A stretch of DNA of 64,000 bases from Pseudomonadota bacterium (GCA_021782495.1 JAJXUV010000001.1:374637-438636); one strand, 5' to 3'; shown: positions 5,138 to 40,447, counted from the stretch's first letter. The notes: generated by a model from the sequence alone, not told the origin. Numbers and translations are program-made.

Positions 5138-6268
5138 ATGATGAAAATTTTGTTTATTTATAAATCATACTACCCTGAAAGCGTTGGGGGTGTCGAGGAA
5201 GTGCTACGGGTATTAATGGCTGGCTTATCGCAGCGAGGCCATCAATGTACTCTGTTGGTAACGACGAAACAGAAAAAGGCCTATAGCCGTTTAGAGGGCT
5301 TGGTGACTATTCATTATTGTCCGATGAATATAGAGATTTCCTCCTGTCCATTCAGTTTAAGTTTTTTGAAAAAATTCCATCAATTAAAATTAGAATATGA
5401 TATTGTCAATTTTCATTTTCCTTGGCCCTTTGCAGATTTGAGTTCTTTTCTTATTCGATTACAGAAACCCTATGTGATCACTTATCATTCTGATATTATT
5501 AAACAAAAATACTTAAAGTTTATTTATACGCCATTGATGCATTGGTTTTTACGTCATGCCAATGCCATTATTGCAACTTCTGAGCAGTATCAACAATCCA
5601 GTCCAATCTTGCGCCGTTATCCAAATACCACACAGGTTATTCCACTGGGGCTGCCTGAAGGCTTAGCACAGACACAATTCGCCAAAGAATTGAGGGATTG
5701 GCAAGAACGCGTAGGACAAGATTTTTTCTTGTTTTTAGGCGTATTGCGATATTATAAGGGATTATCTTATTTACTGAATGCAGTAGAAAATACGCAAATA
5801 CCGGTCGTTATAGCGGGTTCTGGCCCTGAGGAATTAATGTTAAAAGCGATTGCTGTTCAAAAAAAGTTAAATCATGTACGGTTCATTGGCGCAGTCAGTG
5901 AAAAAGACAAGTTTGCTTTATATGCTTTATGTAAAGCCATTGTGATTCCTGCCTGTGAGCGTTCAGAAGCTTATTGTTTAAGTTTGGTCGAAGGCTTACG
6001 AGCAGGTAAACCATTAATTTCCACTGAATTAGGCACTGGCACTTCTTTTGTGAATCAAGCAGATGAAACAGGGCTGGTCGTTACTGCCAAGGATAGCCTT
6101 GCCCTACGTAAAGTACTGCTAAAGCTTCAGCAAGACGAGCATATTTGTCTAAAATTTGCGCAATCCGCGCGTAAAAGATTCTTGGATTACTTTCGTAGTG
6201 ATAGTATGATAGAAGCTTATGAAAGGCTTTTTAAGGGAATAACCAGCCAAGAAAACAAAAAGAAATAA
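5138..6268 (+). CDS. Glycosyltransferase family 4 (GT-B fold)
   Basis: 376 aa. N-terminal KILFIYKSYYPESVGGVEEV. C-terminal E(x7)E-type motif ACERSEAYCLSLVEGLRAGKPLIST. Confidence 0.75.
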   Translation: MMKILFIYKSYYPESVGGVEEVLRVLMAGLSQRGHQCTLLVTTKQKKAYSRLEGLVTIHYCPMNIEISSCPFSLSFLKKFHQLKLEYDIVNFHFPWPFADLSSFLIRLQKPYVITYHSDIIKQKYLKFIYTPLMHWFLRHANAIIATSEQYQQSSPILRRYPNTTQVIPLGLPEGLAQTQFAKELRDWQERVGQDFFLFLGVLRYYKGLSYLLNAVENTQIPVVIAGSGPEELMLKAIAVQKKLNHVRFIGAVSEKDKFALYALCKAIVIPACERSEAYCLSLVEGLRAGKPLISTELGTGTSFVNQADETGLVVTAKDSLALRKVLLKLQQDEHICLKFAQSARKRFLDYFRSDSMIEAYERLFKGITSQENKKK

Positions 6269-12305: not shown

Positions 12306-12691
12306 TAAATCTTCTTGAAAACAAAGATTCTCATTGTATTGTATGAAATCAATGCAGCAATAATCGTTGTTAGAATTTGGGCTAAATAGGGATTCGCTTT
12401 TAGTAAAGAGACAAATCCGTGTAACAATGTTAAATTTATTCCTAATAAAAACACATAAAAAGTAACATAACGTATTATCAAAATATAATTATTGTGCTTA
12501 ACTGAAAAAACTATAAATTTATTCATGAAATAGCTCAAGACTACCCCTAATAAGAAAGAAACTGTACTGGCGATTAAGTAGTTACAATTAAAATAAATTA
12601 ATGTCGCATAAATTGAATAAGCCACTAAATTATAGCTAGCTGCGACAAAACCGAATTTGATGAATTGCTGGTAGCGCCAAATCAATTTCAT
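12305..12691 (-). CDS. GtrA-family small membrane protein (bactoprenol-sugar translocation accessory)
   Basis: 128 aa with four predicted hydrophobic helices. Its stop overlaps the rfbB start, and it overlaps the GT2 stop by 4 nt. Confidence 0.65.
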   Translation of the reverse strand: MKLIWRYQQFIKFGFVAASYNLVAYSIYATLIYFNCNYLIASTVSFLLGVVLSYFMNKFIVFSVKHNNYILIIRYVTFYVFLLGINLTLLHGFVSLLKANPYLAQILTTIIAALISYNTMRIFVFKKI

Positions 12692-21066: not shown

Positions 21067-21849
21067 GTGAAAACTTTTATCCCAGCTAAAAAACGGTTCG
21101 GACAAAATTTTTTAAAAGACAATCGCGTGGTTTCTGCTATTCTAAATGCGTTTTCCGCGAAAGCAGGACAAAGAGTGGTAGAAATCGGTCCTGGGCGCGG
21201 CGCTTTGACGCAAGCACTCTTAAACAGCGGCGCTACGGTCGATGTGGTAGAAATCGACAATGACTTGGTGGCCGAATTGCAAGCGCGTTATCCAGCGCTG
21301 CAAGGGCATTTGCACCATCAAGATGCTTTGTCTTTTTCTCTAACCCAACTGCATTTAGACCAAGAAAAAGTGCGCATTATCGGGAATCTGCCCTACAATA
21401 TTTCAACGCCTTTGTTGTTTCATCTTTTAACGCAAAAAGAGTGTATCCAAGATATGGTATTCATGTTGCAACAAGAAGTGGTGGATCGCTTAGCCGCTCA
21501 ACCTGGTTGCAAAGCTTATGGCCGTTTAAGCATCATGATGCAATTGCATTGTCAGGTACAAGCTTTATTTAGTGTGCCACCGCAAGCTTTTAGCCCTCAA
21601 CCCAAAGTGATGTCGAAGATCGTGCATTTAGTCCCTTATGAGAAGCCTTTGTTTGTGCTTGAATCGATGACGACGCTGGAAAATATATTACGTGATGCGT
21701 TCAATCAACGCAGAAAAACACTGCAAAATAGTTTAAAAGCTTATTTTACAGCGGAAGCATTGACGGCTGTAGACATCGATCCACACGGTCGCGCTGAGCA
21801 ATTGAGTGTGGCCCAGTGGGTGCGGTTGGCGAATGAATTATTCAAATAA
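21067..21849 (+). CDS. rsmA: 16S rRNA (adenine1518/1519-N6)-dimethyltransferase
   Basis: 260 aa. KKRFGQNFLKD and VVEIGPGRGALT motifs. Immediately downstream of surA, as in the conserved surA-(pdxA)-ksgA arrangement. pdxA is absent here. Confidence 0.9.
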   Translation: MKTFIPAKKRFGQNFLKDNRVVSAILNAFSAKAGQRVVEIGPGRGALTQALLNSGATVDVVEIDNDLVAELQARYPALQGHLHHQDALSFSLTQLHLDQEKVRIIGNLPYNISTPLLFHLLTQKECIQDMVFMLQQEVVDRLAAQPGCKAYGRLSIMMQLHCQVQALFSVPPQAFSPQPKVMSKIVHLVPYEKPLFVLESMTTLENILRDAFNQRRKTLQNSLKAYFTAEALTAVDIDPHGRAEQLSVAQWVRLANELFK

Positions 21850-22998
21850 ATGCTTAAAATCATATTGCCAGGGCAAAATGCTCCATTCTTTGAACTTTAG
21901 TTTTTCATCGCCAGCATACACGATGTGGCCGCATTCGTGTGGTAGTTCGCTGATGGCGTGCCATTGTTGTAATCCTTTAACGAGGTCTTTGGTTAAGGTC
22001 ATCGTGGATTTCATTTCAAAAGCCAATAATTTACCGCCGTAATCTACTAATAAATCCACTTCATGACCACTGTGATCGCGCCAATAATAAATAGGCGCGG
22101 TTTTACCTTTGGCGAAAAAAGCTTTGACGATTTCTGAAATGATAAAGCCTTCGAAAATGGCACCTCGGCTGCTGTGAATCAGCAATTGTTCCGGCGATTG
22201 TAAACCCAATAATCTGCAAACAATGCCCGAATCGTAGAAATAAAGCTTGGGCGTTTTGACCAATCTTTTCTTAAAATTATTGAAATAAGGACGTAATTTA
22301 AAAACAATATAACTGGCTTCCAATATATTGAGCCATGTATTAGCCGTTGTTTGTGATATGCCGCAAGCTTGTGCAAGTGTTGTTAAATTTAATTGTTGTC
22401 CGTGCTGACCCGCACACAAACGTAAAAACAATTGAAATTGTGAAAGGTCTTTAATGTAAATAATATCGCGTACATCGCGTTCCAAATAAGTACGAACATA
22501 CGCATTGAACCATAAATCGGTGTCCAAATTTTCTTGGTAAGGTCTAGGGTAACTGCCATGGAATAAGTATTGCCATAAAGAAACCGATTTAAAGGGTTTA
22601 AATTCTTGATAGCTAAGCGGCAGCAATTCTAAAATAGCGACACGACCTGCCAGTGTTTGGCTAATGTGTTGCGACAATAAAAAATTTTGTGACCCAGACA
22701 AAATAAAATGCCCCGCTTTTTTTTGAGTGTCGGCATATTCTTGAATGTAAGAAAATAAGGGGGGAAAACGTTGGGCTTCATCGATGATCCAAGGTTTAGA
22801 GGTTTGGGTTAAAAAACCACGAGGGTCATCTTGTATTTGTAATAGTTTGTCAGGCGATTCAAGCGATACATAATGATAATCCGGAAAAGTAGATTGCAGC
22901 AAAGTGGTTTTGCCGCTTTGTCTGGGTCCGGTTAAGGCGGTGACAGGAAAGGACTGTACCGCTTTTTTCAATGTGGGTGTGAGAAGTCGATTAAACAT
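21838..22998 (-). CDS. AAA+ ATPase with DUF4143 C-terminal domain (COG1373 family)
   Basis: 386 aa. Walker A LTGPRQSGKTT. Walker B-like WIIDEAQ. The C-terminal half is typical of DUF4143. It is one of two paralogues in the window. Confidence 0.75.
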   Translation of the reverse strand: MFNRLLTPTLKKAVQSFPVTALTGPRQSGKTTLLQSTFPDYHYVSLESPDKLLQIQDDPRGFLTQTSKPWIIDEAQRFPPLFSYIQEYADTQKKAGHFILSGSQNFLLSQHISQTLAGRVAILELLPLSYQEFKPFKSVSLWQYLFHGSYPRPYQENLDTDLWFNAYVRTYLERDVRDIIYIKDLSQFQLFLRLCAGQHGQQLNLTTLAQACGISQTTANTWLNILEASYIVFKLRPYFNNFKKRLVKTPKLYFYDSGIVCRLLGLQSPEQLLIHSSRGAIFEGFIISEIVKAFFAKGKTAPIYYWRDHSGHEVDLLVDYGGKLLAFEMKSTMTLTKDLVKGLQQWHAISELPHECGHIVYAGDEKLKFKEWSILPWQYDFKHLFE

Positions 22999-23001
22999 AG
23001 T

Positions 23002-23067
23002 GGATTTTAGTATACACTAAAATCCTGTAAAATTCAAAGTACAACCTTGGATTTTACAGGATTTTAG
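23002..23067. promoter_or_regulatory. Nested palindromes built from GGATTTTA/TAAAATCC, immediately upstream of the DUF4143 ATPase start. Candidate operator or leader hairpins.
   Basis: Palindrome ggattttagt-atac-actaaaatcc at 23002-23025. 17-bp arms ctaaaatcctgtaaaat (23017-33) and attttacaggattttag (23051-67) around a 17-nt spacer. The first palindrome starts 4 nt upstream of the start codon at 22998. Confidence 0.4.
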
Positions 23068-23199
23068 ATTGAAATTGTAAACTAGCCATCCAGAGCAGAA
23101 AAGTGCTTATAAAATAAACTAAATAGCGGGAAAAAGTCAATTTTAAAGCATTCTAAATCGCCCACACATAGCCGAACGATGGTTTCTCTCTTAATTGTA

Positions 23200-23216
23200 C
23201 ACAAAGTTATCCACAG
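23200..23216 (+). promoter_or_regulatory. DnaA-box site 1 (perfect TTATCCACA at 23207-15 inside the 17-mer cacaaagttatccacag)
   Basis: Exact consensus DnaA box. A degenerate box ttgtacaca lies 3 nt upstream. The 17-mer is repeated identically at 23384-23400. Confidence 0.45.
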
Positions 23217-23383
23217 GCTGGCTGGCTACCAAAAAAGAAATTAAAAGACAAGCCCTTTTTAAAGATTTTATATAAAATTTTTTATATAGTTGATTTATAA
23301 GGATTTTTTAATAAAATTGAGCGAAGAGAGGACAATCTGTACTTATTTTAATTAATCTATCGGACGATATGTGAAAACTTAAC

Positions 23384-23400
23384 CACAAAGTTATCCACAG
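23384..23400 (+). promoter_or_regulatory. DnaA-box site 2 (perfect TTATCCACA at 23391-99). It is preceded by a one-mismatch box ttaaccaca.
   Basis: Identical 17-mer cacaaagttatccacag, 184 bp from site 1. An AT-rich stretch of about 90 bp (23250-23340) lies between them. priA starts 87 nt downstream. Confidence 0.45.
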
Positions 23401-23486
23401 AAAAAATATAAGATGCGGTAACACACACATTTTTGATAAACTAAGTCAACAGGCCCTAAATATCATCCTAACAGGCCCCTATTTAA

Positions 23487-25502
23487 ATGAATGAATTAGA
23501 AGTTTATCCGCTTATCGCCAAAGTCGCTTTAGACCTTCCTTTGCGCGTTTTATTCGATTATACCTTGAATGCAGAAGGTCCTATGCCGCAGCAAGGGATG
23601 CGTGTACGTGTGCCTTTTGGTGAGCAAACCAAAGTAGGGGTGATCGCGGCTTGCGCCACAGAATCCGGAGTGCCAGTCCATAAACTAAAGCGTGTTACGG
23701 CTATTTTAGACAATAAACCCTGTGTTTCAGAAGCGATTTTGCGTTTGTGTCAATGGGCAGCAGAGTATTATCACGCTTCTTTGGGCATGGTTCTCGCGGG
23801 GGCTTTGCCCAAACGGCTGCGCTTAGGCGAAGCAATGCCTGAAATAACAGCCCCGATCTTAAATAACGAAACTGATTTTTTACGAACAGCGGGTCATGAT
23901 TTAAATACAGAGCAAAAAAATGCTGTAGACAATATTGTTGCAAGTCTAGGACAATTCAAAACTTTTGTTTTGGATGGCATCACAGGCAGTGGTAAAACGG
24001 AAGTGTACTTACAAGCCATTGCTTGCGCTTTGCAACAAAGCTTGCAAGTGTTGGTCTTGGTGCCGGAAATTGGGTTAACACCGCAAATGATCGCACGTTT
24101 CACGGATCGGTTTAGCGTGCCTATTGCGTTAATGCATTCTAAGTTGACGGAGAAGCAACGTTTAAACCATTGGTTATCGGCTGCGAGTGGCGAAGCACGC
24201 ATTGTCATTGGCACGCGCTCCAGTGTGTGGGCGCTTATGCCGCAATTGGGATTGATCATTGTAGACGAAGCACACGATGCTTCTTATAAACAACAAGATG
24301 GCGTGCAATATTCCGCGCGCGATGTGGCTGTACAAAGAGCCTATCAAAGTGACATTCCAGTGGTGTTGGGATCAGCCACGCACAGTTTAGAAACTTTATA
24401 CAATGTCATTCAAAATCGTTTTTCTCCTTTGGTTTTACGTGAACGCGCTGGTACTGCACGTTTGGGACAATTTAAAGTCTTAGACATACGCAATGAACGC
24501 GTAGAAGAAGGCATTTCAAGGCGCTTACTTCAGGAAATTGCAATTCGTGTTCAAAGAGGTGAGCAAACTTTATTATTTTTGAATAGGCGGGGGTTTTCGC
24601 CTATTTTAATTTGTCATCATTGTGGTTGGGTGGTTCCTTGTTCGCATTGCGACAGTTATATGACGCTGCATTTATCGCCGGAACGTTTGCATTGCCATCA
24701 TTGCGATAGGGTGCGTAAAAAACCGAGAGAATGTTTGAACTGCCGAAGCGATGTGTTGATGCCAGTGGGTTTAGGCACTGAACGCATCGAATCGGTGTTA
24801 AGCAAAGCTTTTCCGAATACAGAGGTGTTACGCATAGACAGAGACACAACACGAAAAAAAGGCAGTTTAGAAATTTATTTGAAAGCGATAGAAGACACAC
24901 AACATTTAATTTTGGTCGGTACACAAATGTTGGCGAAAGGACATCATTTTCCCAATGTGACTTTGGTTGGAATTATAGACGCAGACAGTGGTTTGTTCAG
25001 TTCTGAATTTAGAGCCACTGAACATTTGGCACAATTGATTGTGCAAGTAGCGGGTAGAGCGGGGCGCGCGGAAAAACCCGGTGAAATTTGGATCCAAACT
25101 CGGCATCCAGAGCATCCTTTATTCAACATTTTATTGGAAAAAGGATACCATGCTTTTGCAAACCATATATTAGAAGAGCGTCAAGCAGCGCAATTGGCGC
25201 CTTACAGTTATATGGCAATTATTAGAGTAAGAGGACGAAAGCCAGAAATGTTAAAAGCCGTCTTGACAGGAGCGAAGAAAAGTATGGCAACTGCTTTAAG
25301 TGCTACCGTCCATTGTTTAGGACCTGCACCTTCACCGATGGAAAAACGCGATAAAACCTATCACTATCAATTGTTATTGTGGTCTTATCAACGTTCGGTC
25401 TTGCATCAAGCCTTGAAACAATTAAGCGATTTTTTAAGTACAAACAAACAAGCACGTACTTTGCGTTGGTCTGTGGATGTCGATCCCTACGATACTTTTT
25501 GA
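23487..25502 (+). CDS. priA: Primosomal protein N' (replication restart helicase PriA)
   Basis: 671 aa. Walker A GITGSGKTEVY. DEAH box IIVDEAHD. A Cys-rich zinc-binding region (CHHCGWVVPCSHCDSYMTLH...CHHCD...CLNC). Confidence 0.9.
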   Translation: MNELEVYPLIAKVALDLPLRVLFDYTLNAEGPMPQQGMRVRVPFGEQTKVGVIAACATESGVPVHKLKRVTAILDNKPCVSEAILRLCQWAAEYYHASLGMVLAGALPKRLRLGEAMPEITAPILNNETDFLRTAGHDLNTEQKNAVDNIVASLGQFKTFVLDGITGSGKTEVYLQAIACALQQSLQVLVLVPEIGLTPQMIARFTDRFSVPIALMHSKLTEKQRLNHWLSAASGEARIVIGTRSSVWALMPQLGLIIVDEAHDASYKQQDGVQYSARDVAVQRAYQSDIPVVLGSATHSLETLYNVIQNRFSPLVLRERAGTARLGQFKVLDIRNERVEEGISRRLLQEIAIRVQRGEQTLLFLNRRGFSPILICHHCGWVVPCSHCDSYMTLHLSPERLHCHHCDRVRKKPRECLNCRSDVLMPVGLGTERIESVLSKAFPNTEVLRIDRDTTRKKGSLEIYLKAIEDTQHLILVGTQMLAKGHHFPNVTLVGIIDADSGLFSSEFRATEHLAQLIVQVAGRAGRAEKPGEIWIQTRHPEHPLFNILLEKGYHAFANHILEERQAAQLAPYSYMAIIRVRGRKPEMLKAVLTGAKKSMATALSATVHCLGPAPSPMEKRDKTYHYQLLLWSYQRSVLHQALKQLSDFLSTNKQARTLRWSVDVDPYDTF

Positions 25503-32794: not shown

Positions 32795-33955
32795 TTATTT
32801 TGGGCCTTCATCGGTTTCTGCCAAATAATTTTGTACTCCAACCACTTCTATATTATCTTCTAAAAAATAATCCACATGTCCGGGATAAATGATGGTAAGT
32901 TTATCCAATTTTAGATCTTTTATAATCGTATTCATCGCCGAACTTCGTTTAGGCGATGAAGTGTATTTTACTTCGAAGCCTAGACGTTTACCTTCTTTTA
33001 AAATCAGCAAATCCAACTCAGCCTGTTGATGCACGCCCCAAAAATAGCAATCCTCTGCGCTCACACGATTGACACGGATAATTTCCTCTAAAGCAAAACA
33101 TTCCCAAGAGTGCGCCAGAAGAGGATGCACGAGTAGATCCGAGTAACTGTGTATGTTCAGTAAAGTGTGTAAAATACCACTGTCTCGAATGTAGACCTTA
33201 GGCCTTTTGATTTGGCGTTTACCAATATTTTCAAACCACGGCTTTAATTGTCTTACCATAAAAGTGCCTGTTAAAATATCCAGATAATGCATCACGGTTT
33301 TATCGCTTAATCCTAAAGAACAAGCAATATCAGAAGCATTGAATATTTTTCCGTGATAATGTGCTAACATCATCCAAAAGCGTCGTAAGTTTTCTGAGGG
33401 AATTTTAATACCCAGTCTGGGAATATCGCGTTCCAAAAATGTGAGAATAAACGCTTTACGCCATGCATCGCTGATGGCATCGTCTTTGGCTAAATAAGAT
33501 TTAGGAAATCCACCGCGAAACCACAAGGGTTCTAATTGTCCTACTTCTGGATAAGAAAAGGGTGTAAGTTCTAAATAACTAATACGGCCGGCCAGTGTTT
33601 CCGAAGAAGATTCCGCCAATTCGTGGGAGGCGCTGCCTAAAATTAAAAATTGCTGCGTTAAAGTCGGATCGTCTGCTAACACACGCAAACTTGGAAATAA
33701 AGATTTTACATATTGAATTTCATCGATCACAATGAGCCCTGATAATTTGGACAAGGTCAACAAAGGATCGCTTAAACGTTCTAAATCGCGGCTGTTTTCT
33801 AAGTCAAAATAATTCTGTGAAGCGATATTTCCTTCTTGAGCGATGTATTGCCGCGCACAGGTCGTCTTTCCACATTGTCGTGGTCCTAATAAGGCCACTA
33901 CAGGATTGACCTGAAAAGCGAAGTCTATTTGTCGAAGTATGTCGGTACGTTGCAT
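32795..33955 (-). CDS. AAA+ ATPase with DUF4143 domain (second paralogue)
   Basis: Walker A LLGPRQCGKTT. Walker B-like LIVIDEIQ. I chose the start at 33955 (MQRTDILRQ), which gives the Walker A the same N-terminal spacing as in the paralogue. The track ORF extends to 34060. Confidence 0.7.
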   Translation of the reverse strand: MQRTDILRQIDFAFQVNPVVALLGPRQCGKTTCARQYIAQEGNIASQNYFDLENSRDLERLSDPLLTLSKLSGLIVIDEIQYVKSLFPSLRVLADDPTLTQQFLILGSASHELAESSSETLAGRISYLELTPFSYPEVGQLEPLWFRGGFPKSYLAKDDAISDAWRKAFILTFLERDIPRLGIKIPSENLRRFWMMLAHYHGKIFNASDIACSLGLSDKTVMHYLDILTGTFMVRQLKPWFENIGKRQIKRPKVYIRDSGILHTLLNIHSYSDLLVHPLLAHSWECFALEEIIRVNRVSAEDCYFWGVHQQAELDLLILKEGKRLGFEVKYTSSPKRSSAMNTIIKDLKLDKLTIIYPGHVDYFLEDNIEVVGVQNYLAETDEGPK

Positions 33956-34027
33956 CGCTAATCCACGAAGTTTCGGAGTACATATCCGAATTTTCATATA
34001 AAATAGTGGATTTGTCAAGTAATTTGT

Positions 34028-34060
34028 ATGAAATTTCGGACATAGACTACGAAATTTCAT
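34028..34060. promoter_or_regulatory. 11-bp-arm palindrome atgaaatttcg-N11-cgaaatttcat upstream of the second DUF4143 ATPase
   Basis: Perfect inverted repeat about 75-105 nt upstream of the chosen start at 33955. It parallels the palindromes upstream of the first paralogue. Confidence 0.35.
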
Positions 34061-39349: not shown

Positions 39350-40087
39350 ATGAGTATAGCCGCTGTCTGGGCGACGCCTTTTTCTCAGGAGAAGGCGCAA
39401 CAGTTAGCAGATTCTTTGCAATTACCGCTGCACTCGGAAAAAAGTGCAGCGGTGGATTTCTATCTTTATTACACTTCCAATGGTTTAACTTTAATCGGGA
39501 CACATTTGAATTTAGGTCCACTTCATTTGGATTTTAATCAAGGCGCATTGTCGCAACGTTTAGAAAAAGCCTCTATTCGCAATGAAGCTTTGGCGCGCGC
39601 AGTGGGCTTGCATAAAAAGCGAGATGCTCATATTTGTGATGCAACGGCAGGCATTGGTCGAGAAGGGTGTTTGTTAGCAGCTTTAGGTGCCCAGATCACT
39701 TTGGTGGAGCGTTCCCCCATTATGGTTGCTTTACTGAAAGATGCCTTAGAACGTTGTGAAGCACCTTGGCGCGAAGGCGTGCATTTGGTGGCAGCAGACA
39801 GTGTTGATTTCCTAAATACAACTCTCGCAGAGTTTGATGTGATTTATTTGGACCCCATGTTTGAAGTCCACAGCCATAAAGCACAAGTTAAAAAAGAAAT
39901 GCAATACTTACAAGCTTTAATGGGACCGCAAGAAGATGGCGATGCTTTGTTTCGCGTTGCTTTAAGTCGCAACCCTTGGCGCATTGTGGTTAAAAGACCT
40001 TTAAAAGCACCTTCTTTGTTAGCACAAAAACCGGATTTTTGTTTGAAATTAAAAACTTACCGATTTGACGTATATGTCTTGCCTTAA
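39350..40087 (+). CDS. rsmJ: 16S rRNA (guanine1516-N2)-methyltransferase
   Basis: 245 aa. SAM motif ICDATAGIGREGCLLAALGAQITLVERSP. DPMF motif. Typical of RsmJ/YhiQ. Confidence 0.8.
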   Translation: MSIAAVWATPFSQEKAQQLADSLQLPLHSEKSAAVDFYLYYTSNGLTLIGTHLNLGPLHLDFNQGALSQRLEKASIRNEALARAVGLHKKRDAHICDATAGIGREGCLLAALGAQITLVERSPIMVALLKDALERCEAPWREGVHLVAADSVDFLNTTLAEFDVIYLDPMFEVHSHKAQVKKEMQYLQALMGPQEDGDALFRVALSRNPWRIVVKRPLKAPSLLAQKPDFCLKLKTYRFDVYVLP

Positions 40088-40174
40088 AAATGTATTGACA
40101 TTACTTTAAATTTATATTAACATTACAAATTATATTAAAATTTTTATAGGTAATATAAAGAGGAGATTAAAAAA

Positions 40175-40447
40175 ATGGCTGCAGTCAAAGCGAACGGTCA
40201 CCCGCACTATTCTTGGGTCGAATTTGGGTTTTTAGAAAACGTCGTAGTCTCAACGTTATTCGACGATTCTTTTTTAACACAAAATAGATTATTACGGGGA
40301 TTGACATGGCACAGCTACCTAAAGAATATAATGCATTGGCGACAAATGAAATGGTTAAGGCGATTTGCAAACCACTGTTTGACAGCACAGACATTTGTTA
40401 TTTCCACTATTCTAAATTATACGACAACGCAAAAACTTGCATCTTAA
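40175..40447 (+). CDS. Hypothetical 90-aa ORF with a strong RBS. It overlaps the 5' end of the LuxR gene in another frame.
   Basis: SD agaggag lies 9 nt upstream of the ATG at 40175. No recognisable domain. It may be a frameshifted N-terminal extension of the regulator, or a small upstream ORF. Confidence 0.3.
   Translation: MAAVKANGHPHYSWVEFGFLENVVVSTLFDDSFLTQNRLLRGLTWHSYLKNIMHWRQMKWLRRFANHCLTAQTFVISTILNYTTTQKLAS

Follow-up and report, generated by a model that had tools for sequence, protein, structure and literature searches.

The intergenic region directly upstream of priA, the gene for the replication-restart helicase, in the 64-kb stretch of bacterial DNA analysed here (the window) contains two pairs of DnaA boxes that flank an AT-rich spacer with a predicted site for integration host factor (IHF). 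This layout is similar to that of datA from E. coli. From the sequence and by analogy with E. coli, we consider it an even call whether positions 23140-23402 form a locus of the datA/DARS class (DARS, DnaA-reactivating sequence) that would control or titrate DnaA and would probably also modulate the priA promoter 37 nt downstream. The region contains the following features, some of them named after a wider module from other bacteria that is described below.

22999-23486: intergenic region (488 bp), with priA on one side and a divergent AAA_14/DUF4143 ATPase gene on the other
23130-23194, no strand assigned: conserved block (CATTCTAAA ... TTAATTG) at the left-hand margin of the constrained DNA, identical or nearly identical in five to six relatives
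23195-23203, plus strand: weak DnaA box TTGTACACA, 3 nt 5' of a perfect box, in the position of datA box 7
23207-23215, plus strand: distal perfect DnaA box TTATCCACA, equivalent in position to box 2 of datA and to box U of the wider module
23221-23229, minus strand: candidate inverted box GCTGGCTAC, 5 nt after the distal box, 5/9 to consensus and too degenerate for a DARS box I
23231-23260, no strand assigned: A-tract/T-tract block AAAAAAGAAATTAAAAGACAAGCCCTTTTT, nearly invariant in the clade
23283-23309, minus strand: predicted IHF-type site, core plus flanking A-tract
23379-23387, plus strand: weak DnaA box TTAACCACA, equivalent in position to box 3 of datA and to box III of the wider module
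23391-23399, plus strand: proximal perfect DnaA box TTATCCACA, box II of the wider module
23434-23442, plus strand: predicted extended -10 element for priA, TG-A-TAAACT (TGnTAnACT), in invariant alignment columns, 37 nt 3' of the proximal perfect box
23487-25502, plus strand: priA (NCBIfam NF004067, 888 bits; TIGR00595, 573 bits)

The boxes had been noticed in the original prediction as parts of two identical 17-mers, each with a perfect DnaA box and a degenerate box just upstream of it, and this description was confirmed. The 17-mer CACAAAGTTATCCACAG is present exactly twice in the window (23200-23216 and 23384-23400, 184 bp apart); a third copy was absent from the window at up to 3 mismatches, and none of 100 shuffles yielded two copies. 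Each 17-mer holds a perfect box TTATCCACA, starting at 23207 and 23391, respectively, with a weaker co-directional box (TTGTACACA or TTAACCACA) 5' of it across the 3-nt spacer AAG. The 17-mer is therefore composed of the last four bases of the weaker box, the spacer and the perfect box, and all four boxes are on the plus strand. The whole window contains three copies of the perfect box (0.61 expected). The third copy (62570-62578) lies within a plsX-like coding sequence (PF02504), has no partner boxes and is probably incidental.

The DNA between the two pairs was described as very AT-rich, and indeed the 163-nt spacer (23216-23378) has a GC content of 27%, and its most AT-rich 100 nt one of 17%. 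Of all 100-nt windows in the 64 kb, 0.2% are at least this AT-rich, and they fall at four places; the three other places that are equally AT-rich (≤17% GC per 100 nt; 12422-12532, 40071-40183 and 60058-60278) carry no DnaA boxes. Within the spacer, the putative IHF core TATATAGTTGATT (23283-23295) reads AATCAACTATATA on the minus strand and matches the consensus WATCAANNNNTTR at 12 of 13 positions. A T6 tract at 23304-23309, which is an A6 tract on the minus strand, is located 8 nt 5' of the core (AATCAA), which we take to be the arrangement of the H' site of phage lambda. The spacer contains a single IHF-core hexamer (at 23290), and the site has the same orientation and distance as in datA and in the wider module, an outcome that was equalled by 2.7% of shuffles. 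The A-tract/T-tract block at 23231-23260 could possibly be intrinsically bent or be the site of another protein.

We compared the region with six relatives whose PriA proteins are 74-80% identical to that of the window; a further locus (L005) starts inside priA and holds no upstream DNA. The closest relative with a taxon name is an uncultured Legionellales metagenome-assembled genome (MAG). In every relative whose contig extends far enough, two perfect boxes are present upstream of priA, 182-184 bp apart, and the proximal perfect box is invariant across all seven sequences. Over the ~260 bp from CATTCTAAA to the proximal box the window is 71-74% identical to the relatives with few gaps, while at four-fold degenerate sites of priA the same sequences are 31-41% identical, i.e. 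saturated. This comparison marks the ~260 bp upstream of priA as a constrained DNA element. The distal weak box reads TTGTGCACA or CTGTTCACA in the relatives and the proximal one TTAATCACA; the IHF region (TGATTTATAAG.ATTTTTT) is invariant within the clade, and the clade also conserves GGCTACC at 23224-23230, which overlaps the candidate inverted box. The conserved block just 5' of the distal box pair shows a single indel among the clade members, a 10-nt tandem duplication, GTTGAGCGAT, in one relative (L015, ~5700-5720). Further loci (L152, L153 and L007-L011) had no boxes upstream of priA.

The constraint could have had a source other than protein binding, namely a structured RNA or a leader peptide, and we rejected both. 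Rfam gave no match in the window or in 18 related loci, and RNAalifold returned -9.7 and -17.8 kcal/mol with a positive covariation term and 0-2 compensatory pairs on both strands. A 21-codon open reading frame (ORF; 23179-23244, plus strand, MVSLLIVHKVIHRLAGYQKRN) overlaps the distal box pair, and its ATG, frame and TAA are kept in all six clade members. However, it has no Shine-Dalgarno sequence, the changes in its variable codons are non-synonymous, and it occupies the same DNA as the box pair; its conservation is probably a side effect of constraint at the DNA level.

The final 85 nt before the priA ATG are only 47-51% identical in the relatives, with the exception of the invariant TTTTTG.TA.ACT, through which the extended -10 element was recognised. 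A simple promoter scan listed no priA promoter; it missed the putative extended -10 element because no -35 match accompanies it. Relative to the start site predicted from it, the boxes of the proximal pair are centred at ~-54 and ~-66. Because this pair lies at ~-50 to -70 from the predicted start site, transcription of priA is probably affected by it. A DnaA-regulated promoter was also among the readings of the original prediction.

Next to datA of E. coli, the similarity is mainly one of architecture. Minimal datA consists of boxes 7, 2 and 3 and one IHF site, all of them essential and co-directional, in the order box7-box2-IBS-box3 (IBS, IHF-binding site; PMC5742627). Box 4 is only stimulatory, and the bend made by IHF joins the DnaA on boxes 2 and 3 (PMC5742627; PMC10380432). 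The E. coli sequence is TTGTAAACA-GAG-TTATCCACAG, 56 nt, TAACCTATTGATA, 84 nt, TTATTCACA-AGC-TGTGGATGA; written in the same terms, the window is TTGTACACA-AAG-TTATCCACAG, 67 nt, TATATAGTTGATT, 83 nt, TTAACCACA-AAG-TTATCCACA. Both sites are non-coding and ~200 bp long, and in both a single, equally oriented IHF site separates the boxes. In the window, two high-affinity boxes (23207 and 23391) flank this single IHF-type site, the low-affinity co-directional box TTGTACACA lies 3 nt upstream of the equivalent of box 2 (together they almost repeat the box7-box2 string of datA), and all the counterparts of the essential boxes point in the same direction. Counted from the start of the IHF site, the next box follows after 97 nt in datA, 96 nt in the window and 97-100 nt in the wider module. 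The arm between the upstream box and the IHF site measures 65 nt in datA, 76 nt in the window and 78-80 nt in the wider module (outliers 67 and 91). These differences in arm length amount roughly to whole helical turns.

The two sites also differ. In E. coli datA is located between glyVXY and queG, while the site described here is upstream of priA, and datA has box 3 followed by the inverted box 4 where the window has a co-directional tandem pair. As the flanking genes differ and no sequence similarity was found beyond the motifs, the two do not qualify as orthologues, and judging from the sequence we regard the window site as an analogue or a distant relative of datA.

From this grammar and by analogy with E. 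coli we infer how the element might work. DnaA would bind the two co-directional pairs (in each, the weak box, 3 nt and the perfect box), and IHF, bound to the one H'-type site of the spacer, would bend this AT-rich DNA sharply. The bend would bring together the two DnaA sub-complexes, which would otherwise be 184 bp apart. The resulting complex would lower the pool of active initiator in the same way as at datA, by titration and possibly by stimulated hydrolysis of DnaA-ATP. The same complex would probably couple the transcription of priA to the occupancy of the site by DnaA.

A related arrangement is present in other bacteria. We scanned metagenome contigs for the exact 17-mer and obtained at least 120 loci; as all of them share the 17-mer by construction, only features outside it count as evidence. 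The layout that recurs in these loci, which we call the wider module, consists of an upstream box (U), an IHF site and then a three-box core (III-II-I) with the spacing of DARS: a box, ~78 nt, TAANNNNTTGATW, ~98 nt and then box III-3-II-5-I. In at least 22 loci a priA homologue (33-50% identity to the window PriA) begins ~35-460 nt downstream, many of them with hemE upstream, and these priA-linked loci span 38-72% GC. An inverted box that matches TGTGGATAA at 7/9 or better exactly 5 nt past the perfect box is present in 51 of the 120 matches listed, with a chance of such a box estimated at ~0.1% per locus. A co-directional upstream box (TTATGCACA, TTATCCCCA and similar) is found at -176 to -203, mostly at -185 to -190, in all 23 priA-linked occurrences among the matches listed, and also in 37 of the 93 other listed occurrences. 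The strict IHF consensus YAANNNNTTGATW is present at -109 to -112 in 13 of the 23 priA-linked occurrences among the matches listed, and IHF-like sites are often present in such occurrences at -42 and +40 as well. In GC-rich members the spacer is not AT-rich, while the IHF consensus is kept. Box I is the least conserved box across the listed priA-linked loci (3/9 to 9/9), which recalls the dispensable box 4 of E. coli datA.

The module is not confined to priA. At least ~18 loci (including L074, L127, L045, L091, L092, L135 and L139) have it between divergent xseA, which encodes the large subunit of exonuclease VII, and an exbB/tolQ-like gene, and it is also found near argS, pyrG, a gyrB/parE-like gene and an rsmJ-like gene. 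One locus (L142) has the full module upstream of a divergent uvrB, with CAACGTATTGATA as the IHF consensus, TTATCCACAGGCTTTGTGGATAG as the core and a box at -191. This recurrence in unrelated gene contexts argues for an autonomous unit. Three Methylococcales genomes (L012, L013 and L024) carry the module upstream of priA; it was not seen upstream of priA in Coxiellaceae MAGs, Halieaceae, E. coli or the nearest outgroups of the window clade. In this patchy distribution descent, transfer and convergence cannot be told apart. In three metagenome loci (L101, L049 and L085) the whole module is tandemly duplicated upstream of priA, with the cores ~450 nt apart, each with an upstream box and some with their own IHF consensus.

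The core of the wider module is identical in geometry to the cores of DARS1 and DARS2, in which box I, 5 bp, box II, 3 bp and box III follow each other and boxes I and II are opposed. In E. coli MG1655 the DARS1 core is TTATCCACT-ATTCC-TGTGGATAA-CCA-TGTGTATTA and the DARS2 core is TTATCCCAG-CTTTC-TGTGGATAA-CAT-GGTGTAAGA. The 17-mer corresponds to the end of box III, the 3-nt spacer and box II, and in the window a weaker box of the box III type lies 3 bp from box II in both pairs, in the same direction. DARS2 also has IHF sites, as the wider module does; its regulatory region, however, is on the box I side and not on the box III side. In DARS1 the sequence TTATCCCCA is found ~209 nt to the box III side, and it is the same variant as the upstream box of GC-rich module members. 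DARS1 of E. coli sits in the upstream region of uvrB, a position that is matched by the uvrB-linked module member. In the literature searched, DARS cores are described as conserved among E. coli relatives, at the uvrB and mutH positions.

Could the element therefore be a site of the DARS type, at which ADP-DnaA would assemble, release ADP and regenerate ATP-DnaA? The exact agreement in core spacing between the wider module and DARS1/DARS2, the member upstream of uvrB and the shared TTATCCCCA speak for it, and folding by IHF would set the two co-directional pairs of the window antiparallel, which could mimic a head-to-head pair. Yet a DARS requires boxes I and II to face in opposite directions (PMC6868365), and this is where the window clade departs from it: 5 bp from the proximal perfect box the candidate inverted partner AATATAAGA scores 3/9, the distal candidate scores 5/9, and the DARS core pattern TTATCCACA-N5-TGTGGATAA was not found in the window at up to 3 mismatches. 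We therefore think it quite improbable that the window site reactivates DnaA. Where the original prediction spoke of a DARS/datA-type site, the datA half is supported by the architecture (co-directional boxes, one IHF-type site and datA-like distances) and the DARS half fails for want of an inverted box. A purely cis-regulatory site, in which the boxes and the IHF site would serve as an operator or activator that makes priA transcription dependent on the DnaA level, and would act on the DnaA pool no more than ordinary binding does, deserves more weight, although we still think it unlikely. DnaA is well established as a transcriptional regulator of DNA-metabolism genes, and DARS1 itself is located at uvrB; the conserved extended -10 element lies 37 nt 3' of the proximal box, and the module is found 45-240 nt upstream of priA in at least 22 metagenome loci and in the Methylococcales genomes. 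However, the layout of upstream box, IHF site and core recurs in unrelated gene contexts and in both orientations to the flanking genes, a distal pair whose spacing is kept constant across an IHF site exceeds the needs of simple regulation, and closer relatives of this priA have no box at all upstream of the gene, nor does E. coli.

A DnaA-dependent origin, also suggested in the original prediction, was not borne out. In such an origin (oriC, secondary or cryptic) the AT-rich spacer would serve as the unwinding element, and a basal unwinding system has been defined as a box with ≤2 mismatches, a spacer of 0-16 bp and then ≥3 NAN trios (PMC8287927). The distal pair of tandem boxes, a 15-nt GC-rich spacer and then AAA AAA GAA formally fit this pattern, and the spacer is among the four most AT-rich places of the window. 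Nevertheless, the pattern is nearly unavoidable in an A-tract and is not kept in GC-rich members of the wider module, which retain the IHF site without the AT-richness, and a 14-mer tandem within the spacer is not conserved in the relatives, where the conserved part is the IHF-type site. The GC skew is +0.068 on both sides (1-23000 and 23500-64000), and the cumulative skew does not have its minimum at the site, as an origin would predict, but rises throughout the 64 kb from a minimum at position 113. In all relatives with several kb of flank (L006, L015, L012, L032 and others) the skew had the same sign on either side of the homologous site. No dnaA, dnaN, rpmH, mnmG or parAB was found among those window ORFs that were annotated, which are a part of the total. 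We rejected an origin on the GC skew, the gene context and the comparison with GC-rich relatives, and consider it very improbable indeed. The left half of E. coli oriC consists of R1, an IHF site and then R5M with low-affinity boxes, and it resembles the window in that co-directional boxes flank an IHF site and that a GC-rich stretch and then AT-rich DNA follow 3' of TTATCCACA. It differs in that the AT-rich DNA of the window lies between the boxes and not outside them, and the window has no conserved repeats of the 13-mer type. In B. subtilis, intergenic clusters of high-affinity boxes away from oriC bind DnaA and influence initiation or neighbouring genes; the window resembles them in its intergenic high-affinity boxes, which probably lie away from an origin. 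To our knowledge, B. subtilis has no IHF and its clusters have no fixed geometry centred on an IHF site.

Several observations weigh against a datA-like locus that acts on DnaA. The whole case is built on consensus matches and geometry. The IHF core matches only 12/13 positions and the shuffle test gave p ~0.03. The arm between the upstream box and the IHF site is 11 nt longer than in datA (67 versus 56 nt, about one helical turn), and our assignment of TTGTAAACA as datA box 7 was deduced from the sequence and the published box order and not taken from a sequence given in print. That the link with priA recurs in several lineages would be explained by a role in cis at least as well as by one in trans. 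The nearest outgroups (L149-L151; PriA identity 61-72%) have no boxes in 130-290 nt of upstream DNA. Finally, an nhmmer profile of the upstream 225 nt of the module, built without the core, gave no match to the window beyond noise (E = 3.5, and only at box 1), and because this flank profile is not significant the link between the window and the module is architectural, with common descent not shown.

With these points in mind, we tentatively propose, as less likely than not, that the window holds a derived copy of an old and portable DnaA/IHF control module, which would unite a datA-like long-range arrangement with a DARS-like core and would be widespread in beta- and gammaproteobacteria far from E. 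coli, repeatedly beside the DNA repair and restart genes priA, uvrB and xseA. In the window clade, folding of the co-directional pairs by IHF might replace the head-to-head pair. The data suggest that a single ancestral design may have given rise to datA and DARS as two specialised forms. If the proposal is correct, the regulation of the DnaA nucleotide cycle by non-coding DNA would be old and common and not an enterobacterial speciality, and it would have a physical link to the machinery of replication restart.

Detailed knowledge of non-coding loci by which initiator activity is set (datA, DARS1 and DARS2) comes only from E. coli, and in the literature searched their homologues are reported only in close E. 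coli relatives, at the same genomic positions. We searched the literature on DnaA boxes at priA and hemE-priA and on DARS-like and datA-like sites and found no paper that links them to priA. The window site, from an uncultured lineage related to Legionellales, and the wider module are testable candidates for such control outside Enterobacteria. The position before priA raises the possibility that control of initiation is coupled to the supply of the restart helicase. For annotation, the site illustrates that two perfect DnaA boxes with AT-rich DNA between them are insufficient to call an origin.

The remaining features of the intergenic region and its upstream neighbour are:

21838-22998, minus strand: divergent AAA_14/DUF4143 ATPase gene (Pfam families), specific to this genome at this site
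23448-23478, plus strand: two AACAGGCCC copies of a dispersed short repeat, outside the DnaA element

Family matches agreed with the original prediction that priA is directly downstream of the region (22999-23486) and a divergent DUF4143 ATPase gene upstream of it. The window belongs to a metagenome contig of 413 kb (k141_921961 in ENA ERZ27236847). The gene order is fadL-like, surA, rsmA, the ATPase gene, priA, an aromatic amino-acid permease gene, engB and polA, and elsewhere the window carries genes for polysaccharide synthesis, gyrA and housekeeping genes. In the relatives, the divergent gene upstream of priA is crcB-like (judged by its N-terminus) and not the ATPase gene; because the upstream gene differs in this way, the DnaA-box element travels with priA. 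The ATPase gene looks like a lineage-specific insertion beside the DnaA element that replaced the crcB-like gene of the relatives. Directly upstream of the ATPase gene, at 23002-23067, are nested palindromes (GGATTTTAGT/ACTAAAATCC, and 24-nt arms CTAAAATCCTGTAAAATTCAAAGT/ACCTTGGATTTTACAGGATTTTAG with 92% complementarity) that look like an operator. A second AAA_14/DUF4143 ATPase gene is located at 32795-34060, on the minus strand like the first, and the nested palindromes are not present upstream of it.

A 13-mer repeat had also been claimed just before the priA ATG. The repeat itself is real; its exact part is 9 nt long (AACAGGCCC at 23448 and 23470) and not 13. It is missing from the relatives and dispersed in the window, and it is not part of the DnaA element. 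The window contains eight near-copies of this ACAGGCCCTA-like sequence (1.9 expected), at positions given as 2385, 2540, 23449, 23470, 35897, 55235, 62464, 63497 and 63634. The copies are often located at gene ends and as inverted pairs ~140-155 nt apart, and the repeat looks like a REP-like (repetitive extragenic palindromic) element. In one relative (L003, ~110-145) a palindromic repeat copy, GGGCCTGTAGCCATTGGCTACAGGCCC, is inserted at the same place upstream of priA. Elsewhere in the window, a 1420-aa protein (51570-55832, plus strand) has a superfamily-1 helicase core (AAA_11/AAA_12) and, at its C terminus, Sel1/TPR repeats.

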